A DNA stretch of 64,000 nt from an uncultured Owenweeksia sp. (GCA_964504345.1 CAZDDX010000006.1:14754-78753), one strand, 5' to 3'. Positions 20,405 to 58,955 are shown, numbered from the stretch's first letter. The notes: generated by a model not told the origin, from the sequence alone. Numbers and translations: made by a program.

Positions 20405-20448
20405 AAAAAAAATGGGGCTGCCTCGTCATGAGACAGCCCCTTTTTTTT
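20405..20448. terminator. bidirectional intrinsic terminator
   Basis: A8 run, then an 11-bp stem GGGGCTGCCTC/GAGACAGCCCC (1 mismatch) with a 5-nt loop, then a T8 run. It lies between convergent genes. Confidence 0.8.
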
Positions 20449-23899: not shown

Positions 23900-24653
23900 T
23901 GCTGTAACACGTTGTGGGGTATTCCGCCCCGTTAAAAAAAAGTCCGTGAGCCGGGGCGCTGACGCCTGCGTCGCTGCGACTCCCCCCCTGCAGCAAATCC
24001 GAAAATTCCGAACGGGTGGAGCGCCCCAAGGCCAATTCCACTTGCGTGCCTACCAAGGCGCGCACCATGTTGCGCAAAAAACGATTGGCCCGTATACGGA
24101 AGTGCCATTCCTCGTCCTGAAATTCCCAGTAGGCCTCGTGGACCGTGCACAGGGGCGTGGTGTGGTCTGCATCGGCTTTTGCAAAGGCAGAAAAATCGTG
24201 TTCGCCCACGAGTTGTTCCGCAGCCCAGCGGAGGTTGTCTTCGTTTAAGGACCGATCCACCAACCAAGCAACGTCCCGGTTAAACGGGCTTTTGGTGCGC
24301 GCCAATCGGTACCAGTAGGCCCGCCCCGTACAGGAAAACCGCGCGTGGGCATTGGGCTCCACCGGTTGCAGGGCATGCACCATGACGGAGGGCGGAAGCA
24401 TGCGGTTGAGCTTAAACAAGGCTTGCTCCAGGTCTTCTGGCGCATTGGGTACATCCACATGGGCCACATAGTTCCGTCCGTGCACGCCGGCATCGGTGCG
24501 TCCGGCTCCAACCACCCCACCGGAAGCACCCAAAATACGGTAAAAGGCTTCGTTCAAAACCCCCTGTACGGTGTTCTGGCCGGGCTGAACTTGCCAACCG
24601 GCGAAGTCTGCCCCGTGGTAGGAGAGCGTTGCGAAGTACCTTTGAAAACTCAT
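23880..24653 (-). CDS. truA: tRNA pseudouridine(38-40) synthase
   Basis: The internal ATG of the 405-aa track ORF gives MSFQRYFATLSYHGADFAGWQVQPG...GAGRTDAGVHG (catalytic Asp motif). Confidence 0.9.
   Translation of the reverse strand: MSFQRYFATLSYHGADFAGWQVQPGQNTVQGVLNEAFYRILGASGGVVGAGRTDAGVHGRNYVAHVDVPNAPEDLEQALFKLNRMLPPSVMVHALQPVEPNAHARFSCTGRAYWYRLARTKSPFNRDVAWLVDRSLNEDNLRWAAEQLVGEHDFSAFAKADADHTTPLCTVHEAYWEFQDEEWHFRIRANRFLRNMVRALVGTQVELALGRSTRSEFSDLLQGGSRSDAGVSAPAHGLFFNGAEYPTTCYSNGSSER
24637..24644 (+). promoter_or_regulatory. -7 box TACCTTTG for the phosphoesterase gene, inside truA codons
   Basis: TAnnTTTG match 7 nt upstream of ATG 24652. Confidence 0.5.
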
Positions 24654-25628: not shown

Positions 25629-25754
25629 GGTGCAAAGCTGCAAAAAAAATCAATCAATCAGCGGTCGTATTGAGATTTGTTGTACTATTGCGGCGCAAAT
25701 CCGCCTTAGTGCGGTGGGCCTGAGGCCCTTGACTTTCTCTCCTTATTCCTATTT

Positions 25755-51730: not shown

Positions 51731-52632
51731 CGCCCTAAAAAGCCTTTGACGGACCGCTTGGTACGCATCCAGCGTTGCGCCCAGGACGCGTGCGGACCGT
51801 TTTCGTGGTGGAACAGCCCCTTCATGTACTCGGATCCCTCCGTCGGATTTAAGAGCGACTGGGGGTCAAACTCCCATGCCCCACCGGATTCGTACCCCCA
51901 CGCTTCCAAATGCGGTTGCCACAGGGGGCGAAACAAAGCTTCGTCTTCCGGCAACCACCAGCGGCGCCAATTTCCGTCTCCCCGCGTTCGGGCGATGTGG
52001 CTGAAATTTCGGGCTTGCTCCCCCTCCGCAGTTAATACCCAATCCGTCGGAATTCTGCCGGCCAAAGCGTCAAAATTCCCGCGACGGAAGTCTTCGTACC
52101 GGAGGACGGCCCATCCGGCGGCCCGTGCCTGCTTCTCAAAAGAGCGCAATCGATCCATACGAGCAGCTAAGTCCGCGAGCCAATCTTCTTGCAGCAAACC
52201 GCGAGGCCTCGCCAGCTCAGCAAACGACAGCTCACTGGGGAAGGCTTCCTTGTGCTGTACCAAGCGAAGGGCTCGCTGAAAATCGCGCGGATCCGGTTCG
52301 TGCACGTACAGCCAGCGGTAAAAAAAAGCAGACAGCCAACGGTCTCGGGGGTCGCGAAGCAGCAAAATAGGCAGGTCAAAGGATTGCCCCTGCTCCAGTG
52401 CTTGCTCCACCGTCCATCCGCGAAACGGCTCCGGCACCCGGCTTCCCCATCCGCCGGCGGGATCCACCAACAGCGCTTTCGCCGTTGCTAATTCTGGCCA
52501 GAATGGGTGCGGCTCCGGTTCAAAAAAGGCAGTCGGCCCCGGTTGATTGGGGTCCAAACCACGCGCCTGTGCCAGGCGCGCGTACACCAACGTCGTCCCG
52601 CTTTTGGGCATTCCCAGTACCAAAACCCGCAT
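51727..52632 (-). CDS. sulfotransferase family protein
   Basis: 5-prime-PSB motif GMPKSGTT at the N-terminus and 3-prime-PB motif LLRDPRDRWLSAF. Confidence 0.8.
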   Translation of the reverse strand: MRVLVLGMPKSGTTLVYARLAQARGLDPNQPGPTAFFEPEPHPFWPELATAKALLVDPAGGWGSRVPEPFRGWTVEQALEQGQSFDLPILLLRDPRDRWLSAFFYRWLYVHEPDPRDFQRALRLVQHKEAFPSELSFAELARPRGLLQEDWLADLAARMDRLRSFEKQARAAGWAVLRYEDFRRGNFDALAGRIPTDWVLTAEGEQARNFSHIARTRGDGNWRRWWLPEDEALFRPLWQPHLEAWGYESGGAWEFDPQSLLNPTEGSEYMKGLFHHENGPHASWAQRWMRTKRSVKGFLGR

Positions 52633-52661: not shown

Positions 52662-53717
52662 ATGCTTCCCTCCGTTACCGTCTTGGTGCCCAATTACCGG
52701 CACGCCCGCTACCTCCCCGAGCGGTTGGACAGCATTTTGGCCCAAACGGTGGTCCCCAATGAAGTTTTGTTGCTGGACGACTGCTCTCCAGACGACTCGT
52801 TGTCCATCTTAACGACCTACGCCGCGGAGCGACCCACCTGGCGCGTGGTGGCCAACGAGCAGAATTCCGGGAGTCCTTTTGCGCAGTGGAACAAGGGGGT
52901 TGACATGGCTACCTCCCAATACGTTTGGATTGCGGAGAGCGACGACGCCGCGGACCCGCTCCTGTTGGAGACCTTACTTCAAACCGCACAAGCGCATCCC
53001 ACCGCGGCTTTGGTGTATGCCCAAACCCTCTTGATGGACGAGGAGAGCCGCACCCTGAACTCTTTTCAGCTAAACTACGATTACCTGTTTGGTGCGCGGG
53101 CCGCCCGTTGGAAAGAACCCTATTTCGCCCGAGGGATCGACGAACTGCGCGAGTACTTCATCCTGCACAACGTCGTTCCCAATGCCAGCGGAGCGTTGAT
53201 CCGACGCGACGCCTATTTGGCTGCCGGGGGAGCAAATCCCTGGTACCGCTTGAACGGCGACTGGGCTTTTTACACGCGCTTGTTGGAGCACGGAGACATT
53301 GCCTACGTTTCGGCGCCGCTGAACCGCTTTCGGGTGCACGCGCAAACCCAACGCCAGGCCGCCAATGCCAGCGGCGCGGTGTATGAGGAGCTTTTAACGC
53401 TTGCGGATGACCTGGTGGCCCGGCATTCCCCTCCGAGCGCAATCCAAAAAAAGGCGTACCGCAATTTTGCCGCCTGGTGGGCACATTCGCTGTACCGGCA
53501 AGAATGGACAGGCCCCAAAGCATCGGAAAATGGGCGCATCAACCTGCGATTGCTCCTTCGTTTTGCCCGCATTCACCCACTGGTTCTTCTGCATATCCCG
53601 TACGAAGGCGCTGTGCGTTTGGCTGTTTTCGCGTTGGAATGCGTACATTTAAAGAAGCCGTTGCGGCGGCTGCTGCACCGTTGGTTTCCGCGCGTTTTTT
53701 TTGACCCCATTCCGTGA
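52662..53717 (+). CDS. family 2 glycosyltransferase
   Basis: The internal ATG gives MLPSVTVLVPNYRHARYLPERLDSILAQT...LLLDDCSPDDS...ESDD. Confidence 0.85.
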   Translation: MLPSVTVLVPNYRHARYLPERLDSILAQTVVPNEVLLLDDCSPDDSLSILTTYAAERPTWRVVANEQNSGSPFAQWNKGVDMATSQYVWIAESDDAADPLLLETLLQTAQAHPTAALVYAQTLLMDEESRTLNSFQLNYDYLFGARAARWKEPYFARGIDELREYFILHNVVPNASGALIRRDAYLAAGGANPWYRLNGDWAFYTRLLEHGDIAYVSAPLNRFRVHAQTQRQAANASGAVYEELLTLADDLVARHSPPSAIQKKAYRNFAAWWAHSLYRQEWTGPKASENGRINLRLLLRFARIHPLVLLHIPYEGAVRLAVFALECVHLKKPLRRLLHRWFPRVFFDPIP

Positions 53718-54617: not shown

Positions 54618-55844
54618 TTACAAACGAGCGCGCAGCTCGGTGTCCAACGCGTCCAAAAACTCTTCCGTGTACAAGAAGTGCTCTCCGTGGCGAACGTCGT
54701 TGCCGTGCACGCAAACGGCCAAATCTTTGGTCATTTTGCCGGACTCCACAACATCCACGCACACCTGCTCCAACGTTTCGCAGAAGTGGATCAATTCGGC
54801 ATTGCCATCCAACTTGCCGCGGTGGGCCAAGCCTCGGGTCCACGCAAAAATGGACGCAATGGGATTGGTGCTGGTGGGCTTGCCTTGTTGGTGCATGCGG
54901 AAGTGGCGAGTTACGGTTCCGTGCGCAGCCTCAGACTCCAGCGTTTTGCCGTCGGGGGTCACCAAAACAGACGTCATCAAACCGAGCGAGCCAAAACCCT
55001 GTGCCACGGTGTCGGACTGAACGTCGCCGTCGTAGTTCTTGCATGCCCAGATGAAGCCTCCCTCCCACTTGAGGGCGGAAGCCACCATGTCGTCGATCAA
55101 TCGGTGCTCGTATACAATTCCGGCAGCCTCAAAGCGGGCCTTAAATTCCGCTTCGTACAATTCTTGAAAGATGTCTTTGAACCGACCGTCGTACTTTTTA
55201 AGGATGGTGTTCTTCGTGCTCAAGTACAGCGGCCAATTCTTTTGCAGCGCCAAGTTGAAGCAGCTGCGGGCAAAACCCGCAATGCTCTCGTCCGTATTGT
55301 ACATGCTCAGGGCAACACCGTCGCCCTTGAAGTTGTACACCTCCCAAGACTGCGGCTCGCCGCCGTCCTCAGGGGTAAACGTCATCGTGAGTTTGCCTTT
55401 GCCCTTGATTACGGCATCCGTCGCGCGGTACTGATCGCCAAAGGCGTGGCGTCCAATGACAATGGGCTTGTTCCAAGTGGTGACCAAACGGGGAACGTTG
55501 GCACAAATGATGGGCTCGCGGAAGACCGTACCGTCCAAAATGTTGCGAATGGTGCCGTTGGGGGACTTCCACATTTGCTTCAGGCTGAACTCCTTCACGC
55601 GGTTTTCGTCCGGCGTGATGGTGGCGCACTTGATGCCCACGTTGTAGTGTTTGATTGCCTCCGCAGCGTCCACCGTCACTTGGTCGTTGGTGGCATCGCG
55701 GTTTTCCATGCCCAAATCGTAGTACTTTATGTCTAGATCGACGTACGGCAGAATAAGTTTATTTTTGATGAAAGACCAGATGATGCGGGTCATTTCATCG
55801 CCGTCGAGCTCGACGACCGGGTTGGCTACAGCAATTTTTTTCAT
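54618..55844 (-). CDS. icd: NADP-dependent isocitrate dehydrogenase (eukaryote-like homodimeric type)
   Basis: [23 protein letters not shown]... 408 aa. Confidence 0.95.
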
Positions 55845-55851
55845 GATTGTG

Positions 55852-55859
55852 CAAAATTA
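55852..55859 (-). promoter_or_regulatory. -7 box TAATTTTG for icd
   Basis: TAnnTTTG match 7 nt from ATG 55844. It lies in the last 3 nt of the dnaX tau segment and the 5 nt downstream of it. Confidence 0.5.
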
Positions 55860-56677
55860 CTCGATATCGAGCTGGAATGTTTGACGAAAATCGTGGAGAA
55901 GTGGATTTTTTTCAGCTAAATAGGCAAATCGCTCGTCCGGTGTATAAACCACCTTGGCAGCAGCTTCCCGCGACACATCCACCACGATGTCGATGCTGTC
56001 GTTCTGCAAACCTTCGCGCAAGAATTGAAGCATGGAATCGCGTTGCTCGGCCGTATACTTCTCTTGAATGGCATTGCTCACCGTAAGCTGAACGCGGTGT
56101 TCCGGGTCCACCTCCACCACCATAGACTCCAGCAAGGCCTGCACGGCGGGCTGATGGGCTAAGCTGGCCACGTATTCGGCCCATACCCGGCGTAAATCAC
56201 CCAGGTGGTAGGCGTTGTCACGTTTCGCCGGGCGAACCTCCACCGGAGCGTTTGGAACGGCCCCTCCCTCAAGAGCTTTCGGATTTTCCAGGGCATCGGA
56301 TGCGCCCGAAACCGCATTGGACCCTCGTTCCGGAGTTTGCAATTGCGCCAAGGAGAAGGCACTGGTGCGGCGAATGGAGGGTACCCCACCCGAAACTACC
56401 GCTGGTGCGGCCGATTCTGGGGCAGGGGGTGCAACGAAAGCGATAGCTTCAGGAGCCGACGGTGCCGCAACTGGATTGTTTTCAACGGACAACTGATGGT
56501 CTGGAGACAATGCCTCAGCGGATGCGCGGGCTGCTGGGGCTTCGGCTGGTGAGGTTGCTACGGACGCAACCAAGACATCGGCTTGCACTGGGCCTACCGC
56601 CGATGCAGCTAGAGATGGGGCATTTTGCGGGGCAGTTTCAACGACCTCCGCTGGCGACGCTACCGATTTTTTTTTTC
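55857..56677 (-). CDS. dnaX: dnaX -1 frame segment encoding the tau-specific C-terminal domains
   Basis: My translation of the -1 frame from the A-run is [38 protein letters not shown]..., continuous with track ORF 55857..56588. That ORF ends with a tau-type C-terminus (VWAEYVASLAHQPAVQALLESM...ERFAYLAEKNPLLHDFRQTFQLDIE). Confidence 0.75.
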
Positions 56678-57748
56678 GGCGTCCCCGCCGTCGTACTCCG
56701 GCGATTCCGCCATGTCCAGAAGGGCCACCTCCGTGAGGAGCCTCGGATTACTGGAGGTTTTGTACTTGGACTCGGCCTCGGTGATCCGACGGAGCGCACG
56801 TGCAAAGAAGGCCAAAGATGCCGCACCGGACTGTACCTTGAATTTCTCTTTGATGGAGGCTGGCCATTCCATCAAGCCCACCGTCTGGGGATGCACCGCC
56901 AGCATCACGTCCCGAAGATGGGACGCCAATCCAATGACAAATTGATGACCGTCGAACCCGCGCTCCAAAACCTGATGGAAACGCACCAAAACGCCGGGCA
57001 CATCGTGGGCAATCAACGAATCAACGACGGAAAAATAAACGTCGTGGTCCAATATTTGGAGGTTGTCCACCACGGAGGTATACGTGATGTTGCCCTGGGC
57101 AAAACTCGCCACACGGTCAAAAATAGAAAGCGAGTCGCGCAAAGCACCGTCGGCCTTGATGGCGATGGCGTGCAAGGCTTCTGGTTCTGCGGAAATGCCT
57201 TCTTTGGACGCCACAAAAGCCAAGTGGGATGCGATGTCCTCAACCCCTATGCGTTTGAAATCAAATATTTGACAACGCGATAGAATCGTGGGAAGCACCT
57301 TGTGTTTTTCCGTGGTTGCCAGGATAAAAATGGCGTGACGCGGAGGTTCTTCCAACGTTTTCAAAAAGGCATTAAAGGCCGCCTGGGACAACATGTGTAC
57401 CTCGTCGATGATGTACACCTTGTATTGGCCCACGGCCGGCGCTATGCGCACGCTGTCCGTGATGGATCGAATTTCCTCCACACTGTTGTTGGAGGCTGCG
57501 TCCAGCTCAAAGATGTTCAATCCTACATCCGCACCCGGCTCGACGGTGGATTCGTTGATGATTTTGGCCAAAATTCGAGCGCAGGTAGTTTTGCCAACGC
57601 CTCGTGGCCCACAAAACAACATTGCCTGCGGAATCCGCCCGGACTGCACCGCGTGCTCCAAAGTTTCGGTAATGTGGGACTGCCCCACCACCGACTCAAA
57701 TCGCTGCGGCCGATACTTTCGAGCCGATACCGTATATCCCGTTTCCAC
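56660..57748 (-). CDS. dnaX: DNA polymerase III subunit gamma/tau, 0-frame product (gamma-like, 362 aa)
   Basis: GTG start, [13 protein letters not shown], Walker [19 protein letters not shown]. The 0-frame ends ...GGDAEKKNR-stop, immediately after an A10 run. Confidence 0.9.
56667..56676 (-). other. dnaX: A10 homopolymer (A AAA AAA slippery heptamer) at the dnaX gamma/tau junction
   Basis: The plus strand shows T10 at 56667-56676. The 0-frame codons are GAA AAA AAA AAU CGG UAG. The -1 frame is open from here to 55857. Confidence 0.85.
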
Positions 57749-57796: not shown

Positions 57797-58132
57797 ATGA
57801 ATCAGTACGAAACCGTTTTCATTTTGAATCCCGTCTTATCTGATGATCAGGTAAGGGAAACGGTTGATAAATTCACAGGCCTACTAAAGGGCGCTGGTGC
57901 TGAAATTATCAACGTTGAAAAGTGGGGCTTGAAAAAGCTCGCTTACCTTATCGACAAGAAGAAAAGCGGATTCTACCAGCTGGTGGAATTCAAAGCACCG
58001 GCCACAGCCATCGCACCGATGGAAGTAGAAATGCGTCGCGACGAGCGCGTTATGAGATTCCTGACTGTCCGCCTGGACAAGCACGGAGTGGAGTACGCCG
58101 CTAAACGTCGGAGCAAAGTTGCCAACAAATAA
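57797..58132 (+). CDS. rpsF: 30S ribosomal protein S6
   Basis: The internal ATG gives [19 protein letters not shown]... Confidence 0.93.
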
Positions 58133-58143
58133 TCCCGTTGAAA

Positions 58144-58440
58144 ATGAGCACGATTGAAAGCACCAACGCGGCGGCTCCCAGCGGAGAAGTTCGCTACTTG
58201 CAGCCGATTGCGATCGACACAAACAACAAAAAGAAGTATTGCCGCTTCAAGAAGTACGGCATCAAGCACATCGACCACAAAGACCCTGAGTTTTTGTTGC
58301 GTTTTTTGAACGAGCAAGGAAAAATCCTTCCCCGTCGCTTGACCGGAACCTCTTTGAAGTACCAGCGCAAACTTTCTCAAGCCGTGAAGCGCGCCCGTCA
58401 CTTGGGTCTGATGCCGTACGTGGCCGATAACTTGAAATAA
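58144..58440 (+). CDS. rpsR: 30S ribosomal protein S18
   Basis: [39 protein letters not shown]. The start is ATG 58144, or TTG 58138 as in the track. Confidence 0.92.
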
Positions 58441-58449
58441 GCCCGTCCC

Positions 58450-58902
58450 ATGGAAGTAATTTTGAAACAAGACGTCGAGAACCTTGGGTTTAAAGACGAT
58501 ATGGTAGTGGTGAAGCCCGGTTACGGCCGCAACTTCCTGCTCCCTACTGGACAGGCCATTTTGGCTACTCCTTCTGCTAAGAAAATGTTGGCCGAAGATT
58601 TGAAGCAGCGTGCGCACAAAGAAGCCAAGGTTATTGCTGATGCAACCGCTATGGCTGAAAACCTCAAGCGCATTGAATTGAAGTTAACTTCTTCTTCCGG
58701 TAAGGGCGGCAAGCTGTTTGGTGCCGTAACTAACCACCACATGGCAGAAGAGTTGAGCAAACTGGGCTACGCAATCGATAAGAAATTCATCACCATCATT
58801 GGCGGCACCGTGAAGACGGCCGGCAAGTATTCGTCCAAAATTCGCTTGCACCGCACGGTGACAATTGACTTTGGTTTTGAAGTGATTGGTCAAGAATCTT
58901 GA
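58450..58902 (+). CDS. rplI: 50S ribosomal protein L9
   Basis: MEVILKQDVENLGFKDDMVVVKPGYGRNFLLP. Confidence 0.95.
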   Translation: MEVILKQDVENLGFKDDMVVVKPGYGRNFLLPTGQAILATPSAKKMLAEDLKQRAHKEAKVIADATAMAENLKRIELKLTSSSGKGGKLFGAVTNHHMAEELSKLGYAIDKKFITIIGGTVKTAGKYSSKIRLHRTVTIDFGFEVIGQES

Positions 58903-58926: not shown

Positions 58927-58955
58927 AAAACCGCCCCACTGGGGCGGTTTTTTTT
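58927..58955 (+). terminator. intrinsic terminator after rplI
   Basis: The sequence aaaaCCGCCCCactGGGGCGGtttttttt has a 7-bp GC stem, a 3-nt loop and a T-run. Confidence 0.8.

Follow-up and report, generated by a model that had tools for sequence, protein, structure and literature searches.

A dnaX gene split at a run of ten A's in a freshwater lineage of Flavobacteriales, and its probable expression by transcriptional slippage

How is an essential replication gene expressed when its reading frame is broken? The question is raised by a dnaX gene in a stretch of 64,000 nucleotides (nt) from an uncultured Owenweeksia sp. (GCA_964504345.1 CAZDDX010000006.1:14754-78753; the whole stretch is called the window below), in which the 0 frame ends just after a run of ten A's (A10) and the part specific to the long product, tau, lies in the -1 frame. 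A first-pass annotation, made from the sequence alone, had described this split, with a gamma-like product in the 0 frame and tau in the -1 frame, and all of its coordinates and translations were reproduced in our analysis. Our results point to a functional dnaX of Schleiferiaceae-like freshwater Flavobacteriales that is likely expressed by programmed transcriptional slippage. The elements of the gene, numbered from the first letter of the window, are as follows.

56660..57748, minus strand: dnaX open reading frame 1 (ORF1, 0 frame), a 362-amino-acid (aa) gamma-like product with clamp-loader ATPase domains I-III, identified from the ORF list, Pfam and TIGR02397
56667..56676, minus strand: the A10 run in mRNA sense (T10 on the plus strand), putatively slippage-prone, beginning at codon position 2
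56638..56640, minus strand: a TGA that closes the +1 frame, 26 nt past the A10 run
55857..56675, minus strand: the tau-specific continuation in the -1 frame, an Ala/Pro/Ser-rich linker and a C-terminal domain, 270 codons after the shift
55860..56204, minus strand: the conserved tau C-terminal domain (LGDLRRVW...FQLDIE), assigned to PF28557/DUF8439 in relatives by matches precomputed on homologous ORFs

ORF1 starts at GTG 57748 and stops at TAG 56660-56662, 4 nt past the A10 run, where the mRNA reads GAC GCC GAA AAA AAA AAU CGG UAG. It matched the Pfam families DNA_pol3_delta2, DNAX_ATPase_lid and DNA_pol3_gamma3 (domain III), and scored 380 bits against the TIGR02397 model dnaX_nterm (cutoff 250). 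Read from 56675, the -1 frame meets its first stop at TAA 55857-55859 and contains the whole of a 243-aa ORF (55857..56588), as the first-pass annotation had proposed in stating that the two join without a stop. The conceptual fusion of ORF1 with the -1 frame is 630 aa long. Comparison with the NCBIfam model NF011531 (Bacteroidota-type DnaX, 614 positions) revealed that ORF1 covers profile positions 3-364 and the -1 ORF positions 377-613 (E 1.4e-21), and that the fusion matches in one stretch, residues 4-629 against positions 3-613, with 620 bits. This score is slightly under the 685-bit equivalog cutoff of NF011531; the cutoffs of NF004046 and TIGR02397 were passed. A local Pfam scan of the -1 ORF gave no match, and its identity came from NCBIfam and from the precomputed PF28557 matches. 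The heptamer that stands in register within the run is A_AAA_AAA, which fits X_XXY_YYZ, as had been claimed, and differs from the A_AAA_AAG of Escherichia coli dnaX.

The A10 run is the sole homopolymer of at least nine in the window. An argument that such a run is improbable by composition was dropped, since dinucleotide-shuffled sequence had, on average, 4 A9 matches in each window; composition alone thus permits a run of A9 to A10 in 64 kb, and the significance of the run rests on its position and conservation. Seven A8/T8 runs occur elsewhere in the window, at 20405-20412, 20441-20448, 23934-23941, 25642-25649, 52320-52327, 53695-53702 and 58948-58955.

Conservation was examined at the DNA level in 17 further loci of the lineage (L081, L001, L082-L085 and L087-L096), which came from NCBI metagenome-assembled genomes (MAGs) and from ENA, JGI and Logan assemblies of different projects and samples. 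All 17 have the identical hairpin sequence (described below), A10 run and frame arrangement, within the shared synteny rplI-rpsR-rpsF, dnaX, icd; comparison of relatives had been put forward as a check by the first-pass annotation, and in these loci it yielded A10 throughout. A near-identical allele, P0121, recurs in 122 indexed blocks of the collection. The nearest proteins in the database are likewise DnaX of 362 aa, P0001 (95% identity) and P0002 (89% identity), which represent clusters of 104 and 44 members, respectively. Among the members listed none exceeds 362 aa, and the N-terminal ORFs all end in EKKNR or EKKKP; a fused DnaX was not found among the listed members of the P0001 cluster. 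The 90% identity cluster of P0001 also lists 243-aa products of the C-terminal ORF (P0123 and others), which have no sequence in common with the representative.

In the relatives, the -1 frame after the run stays open for 270-337 codons across the indel-rich Ala/Pro/Ser-rich linker, in which all indels are multiples of three. The ratio of nonsynonymous to synonymous divergence (dN/dS, by the method of Nei and Gojobori, NG86) is 0.049-0.078 for the C-terminal domain, the same level as the 0.046-0.062 obtained for the N-terminal ATPase part, over comparisons that span a dS of 0.5 to >1.8 and include two sub-lineages separated by dS >1.8. Since dnaX is essential and its sequence is constrained both before and after the conserved break, translation would have to pass from one frame into the other. 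On these comparative grounds the frame break is real, and is neither an assembly error nor the mark of a pseudogene. The central proposal of the first-pass annotation, that the standard frame yields a gamma-like product and that tau is reached by moving into the -1 frame at the A10 run, is supported: the split is conserved in many independent assemblies, and purifying selection acts on both halves.

A survey of the best 80 species-level dnaX loci (L001-L080) in the GTDB genome collection, all titled Bacteroidota except one MAG named ‘uncultured Rhizobium sp.’ (L053), placed this arrangement in a broader pattern. The junction between domain III and the linker carries a run of at least A8 in 72 of the 80 species and of exactly A10 in 66, and a test of frame openness assigned tau in those 66 as follows.

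A10, tau in the 0 frame: 41 species
A10, tau in the -1 frame, as in the window: 23 species, among them cultured Flavobacterium and Chryseobacterium
A10, tau in the +1 frame: 2 species (L023, L071)

Depending on the species, the first A of the run stands at codon position 1, 2 or 3, and in every case both non-tau frames close 0-41 nt past the run. The nearest in-frame relative is a sister lineage (L086) with 56% protein identity and the same synteny, in which an A10 at 2573-2582 lies in the same codon phase as in the window, tau is in the 0 frame and the -1 frame is closed by a TAA three codons in. Even among relatives this close, the polarity has thus changed, and the ten A's have remained. 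A few loci have runs of other lengths (A9, A11 or A12). The run is A12 in L026 and L069; in L030 (Flavobacterium sp. YO12) it is A9 with tau in the +1 frame, and the other Flavobacterium have A10. The one-A difference of L030 may reflect either true variation or an error in the homopolymer.

Directly 5' of the run, folding predicted a second element.

56677..56690, minus strand: a predicted nascent-RNA hairpin, CGGCG-GGGA-CGCCG, with a 5-bp GC stem and a GGGA loop

The last base of this hairpin is the G immediately 5' of the A10 run. As a minimal 16-nt element it has a predicted stability of -8.9 kcal/mol (z -3.9), and one of 200 shuffles was as stable. In 44 non-redundant sites of the survey, a 30-nt window ending exactly at the run had a mean z of -1.19; moved 6 nt upstream it had a mean z of -0.12, and at all other offsets from -240 to +240 nt the mean z lay between -0.49 and +0.44. 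Over all 74 sites the stability at the run was significant (p = 6e-9), and the last paired base lay no more than 3 nt from the run in 56 of the 74. The hairpin sequences differ completely between lineages, as seen in Flavobacterium (CUCUAUCA-ACUU-UGAUGGAG) and Hymenobacter (GGCCACGCCG...CGGCGAGGCU), and the abutting position recurs. The first-pass annotation had pointed to a G-rich GGCGGGG element a few nt upstream. The element does sit directly upstream of the run, and it is better read as part of the CGGCG-GGGA-CGCCG hairpin. A role for GGCGGGG as a Shine-Dalgarno-like stimulator was considered and rejected as the main interpretation, because its sequence is not conserved outside the lineage, whereas a hairpin at the same place is. 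As Shine-Dalgarno pairing is little used in Bacteroidota, GGCGGGG is also unlikely to serve as a 5' stimulator of the E. coli style.

From these data, we propose that RNA polymerase (RNAP) transcribing the T10 template tract would give rise to a mixed mRNA population. Faithful A10 transcripts would be translated normally into the 362-aa gamma-like clamp-loader subunit, ending at UAG, while A11 transcripts with one extra A, and also A8 or A14 transcripts, would bring the downstream 270 codons into frame, for a tau of 630 aa. Translation of A9 and A12 transcripts would run to the UGA 26 nt downstream and give a short gamma-like form of about 369-370 aa. The GC hairpin, formed in the nascent RNA directly behind the run, would probably promote realignment once the RNA:DNA hybrid is entirely rA:dT, as in the IS630 element of Roseiflexus. 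The occurrence of slippage at the RNA level and its efficiency, as well as the role of the hairpin, are what we infer here from the anatomy, the conservation, the selection and the phylum-wide pattern.

The main rival is -1 programmed ribosomal frameshifting (PRF), in which all mRNAs would have A10 and some ribosomes would slip back on A_AAA_AAA into the tau frame. The perfect X_XXY_YYZ heptamer in the correct register, the -1 position of the tau frame in this lineage and the use of -1 PRF on A_AAA_AAG by E. coli dnaX are all in keeping with it. The first-pass annotation had left the choice between -1 PRF and insertion of an A by RNAP open, and the comparative evidence leans to the latter. The run has ten A's in each of the three codon phases, where seven would do for a ribosomal site, and the position of tau with respect to the upstream ORF varies, with every frame represented; in L023, L071 and L030, where tau lies in the +1 frame, a different ribosomal event would be needed. 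Both alternative frames are shut at once, which is the arrangement of Thermus. In addition, the structure lies 5' of the run, the wrong side for a ribosomal stimulator and the right side for one acting on the polymerase. A downstream stimulator of -1 PRF was not found in the 60 nt past the run in the window (z +0.11), nor was there a dip in stability at any downstream offset to +240 nt in the 44 lineages. The limited use of Shine-Dalgarno pairing in the phylum also counts against GGCGGGG as an E. coli-style 5' stimulator of this route. In E. coli, moreover, ribosomes are reported to shift far less readily at A_AAA_AAA than at A_AAA_AAG (review PMC5009743). Taken with the points in its favor, -1 PRF thus appears unlikely as the main route to tau.

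Several points weigh against transcriptional slippage with hairpin stimulation, or at least temper it. As A_AAA_AAA is in register, some -1 ribosomal frameshifting is possible. Should slippage chiefly insert a single A, and do so with modest frequency, tau would be the lesser of the two products and might not suffice. The hairpin signal in the window is clear for the minimal 16-nt element only, and the 32-nt upstream segment (z -1.06 against dinucleotide- and GC-matched shuffles) was not significant. Across the phylum the hairpin is enriched and not universal, with about one third of the sites in the lowest 5% of controls. Finally, we found no experimental work on recoding of Bacteroidota dnaX in the searchable literature, which yielded only Antonov et al. 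2013 and a 2016 review on this subject and leaves most subscription journals uncovered.

A wider proposal is that A10 and the hairpin abutting its 5' side form a dnaX slippage cassette of the whole phylum Bacteroidota, stimulated by the nascent RNA and producing a fixed mix of transcript lengths. We regard this tentatively, as slightly less probable than an even chance. Under such a cassette, the fixed mix would leave tau free to move among the 0, -1 and +1 frames (41, 23 and 2 species) with the cassette untouched. If true, it would be the first case of hairpin-stimulated RNAP slippage in a housekeeping gene, and it would explain the retention of exactly ten A's, which is about one RNA:DNA hybrid length.

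Three further explanations have been weighed. The gene may be truly split into two separate polypeptides, with the C-terminal ORF translated from an internal start such as GTG 56588, and gene callers do annotate a separate downstream ORF. However, each lineage has its -1 frame open right from the run, which precedes any called start by 27 to about 200 codons, and the called starts are inconsistent, giving ORFs of 131, 141, 180, 218 or 243 aa in L081-L096. The linker indels in multiples of three and the match of the fused sequence to a DnaX model in a single stretch also argue for one protein. The E. coli tau links the polymerase and the helicase to the clamp loader, a task of which an untethered C-terminal piece would be incapable. 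Two separate polypeptides are therefore very improbable. There is similarly little probability in DNA-level phase variation, in which run length would alternate within the population, A10 in some cells and A11 in others, with tau made by the latter alone. Long homopolymers are hypermutable in replication, but every assembly consensus is A10 and 66 of the 80 species are fixed at exactly ten A's whatever the tau frame; as dnaX is essential, A10 cells would be dead without recoding. Least credible of all is an artefact or decay, that is, a miscounted homopolymer (true A11) or a recently inactivated pseudogene. Homopolymers are error-prone in some sequencing chemistries, and the first-pass annotation had raised the possibility of a miscount. 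However, at least 17 loci, from independent samples and different assemblers, agree on A10, as do both of the diverged sub-lineages, the downstream domain has a dN/dS of about 0.05, and the same architecture is found in 23 other species.

Transcriptional slippage at a dnaX gene of this layout has precedents. Antonov et al. 2013 (NAR 41:6514, PMC3711429; the GeneTack dnaX cluster) reported 17 dnaX genes, spread over 12 genera, in which the DNA itself carries a -1 frameshift, 9 of them with ten A's. The ten-A set includes Flavobacterium johnsoniae, F. psychrophilum, Cytophaga hutchinsonii and Capnocytophaga ochracea, whose dnaX genes are shown in Suppl. Fig. S3 of that paper, together with Chlorobium spp. 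and Coraliomargarita; transcriptional realignment was inferred there by analogy with Thermus. The window gene shares the A10 at the end of the gamma ORF, the stop just after it, the tau part in the -1 frame and the Bacteroidetes neighbourhood, and it therefore belongs to this known two-ORF type in all sequence-level respects, although it comes from a Schleiferiaceae-like freshwater family outside that set. The two-ORF A10 layout of dnaX itself is thus not novel, having been published in 2013 for Bacteroidetes/Chlorobi. The same holds for the inverted polarity that the first-pass annotation had emphasized, which is indeed present here and was preceded by those nine A10 genes. Antonov et al. described split genes only, without a 5' hairpin or the A10 of in-frame relatives.

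In Thermus thermophilus, slippage at an A9 run of dnaX has been shown experimentally (Larsen et al. 2000, as summarized in PMC1088944 and PMC5009743), and, according to these summaries, slipped transcripts of several lengths all lead to the short product. An A run at the same junction and nearby stops in the alternative frames are common to Thermus and the window. Heterogeneous mRNAs give two products in Thermus, and we propose a counterpart here. The polarity is reversed: the templated frame of the Thermus gene encodes tau, a defining feature of that type, and its slipped transcripts give gamma. The E. coli dnaX also has two products with a common N-terminus, and an A-rich slippery heptamer marks the boundary of its domain III; however, that heptamer is A_AAA_AAG, an upstream Shine-Dalgarno-like element and a stem-loop on the downstream side accompany it, and tau is encoded by the 0 frame, where the window has A10, no downstream structure and tau in the -1 frame.

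The geometry of the hairpin matches that in the IS630 element of Roseiflexus, for which stimulation of slippage, through an effect at the upstream end of the RNA:DNA hybrid, has been demonstrated (Penno et al. 2015, according to PMC5009743). There, a GC-rich hairpin (GCGGGCgcaaGCCCGC; CGGCGgggaCGCCG in the window) lies directly 5' of the slip motif, and the full-length protein comes from the slipped transcript, as we propose for the window. The Roseiflexus motif, by the same summary, is U5C5 in a transposase gene and loses one C, unlike the A10 of a housekeeping gene, and the role of its hairpin was demonstrated, whereas the role of the window hairpin is suggested by its position-specific enrichment. 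In Shigella mxiE, Citrobacter rodentium tssM (PMC4256274) and the poly(A) tracts of endosymbionts, a longer functional product similarly needs a non-templated base at a homopolymer; these cases are mostly lineage-specific, in contrast to the dnaX site, which is conserved across a phylum and has two presumably useful products.

Within the same searchable literature, we found no description of a 5' hairpin in dnaX, nor of a near-universal A10 in in-frame relatives or of interchangeable polarity. The invariant A10 with interchangeable polarity and an abutting hairpin can thus be called modestly new. In the survey, the tau/gamma polarity flips repeatedly around the invariant A10, and the window gene adds a further well-supported case of an essential replication protein that depends on non-standard decoding. 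If the 5' hairpin is functional, it would link dnaX expression to a terminator-like mechanism of stimulated slippage, and would offer a tractable system, e.g., in Flavobacterium johnsoniae, for studying how the tau:gamma ratio is set.

There are also consequences for annotation. From standard gene callers, this essential gene emerges as two pieces, a ‘short DnaX’ and an orphan DUF8439 ORF, which should be joined as one recoded gene. The called tau C-terminal ORFs of L081-L096 are labelled PF28557/DUF8439 only, and this family seems to be, at least in part, an orphaned tau C-terminus.

Some individual loci showed irregularities of their own. In two Bacteroidales MAGs (L061 at about 2788 and L063 at about 4144), an A run is lacking and the 0 frame of dnaX stops close to this junction, with the +1 frame of L063 staying open for another 266 codons; these breaks could be assembly indels or a different recoding site. 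Chryseobacterium ginsenosidimutans THG 15 (L073) has an extra frame break about 130 nt before the A10 (upstream of 4063), which the species' other strain (L036) lacks. An N run (scaffold gap) follows shortly after 3573 in L083, in the low-complexity linker just past the A10. The linker is evidently difficult to assemble, and its length differs between strains (270-337 codons). As for the surroundings of dnaX in the window, a gene for NADP isocitrate dehydrogenase (54618-55844, minus strand) lies directly downstream and rpsF-rpsR-rplI (57884-58902, plus strand) is divergent upstream, both of which are kept in all relatives.

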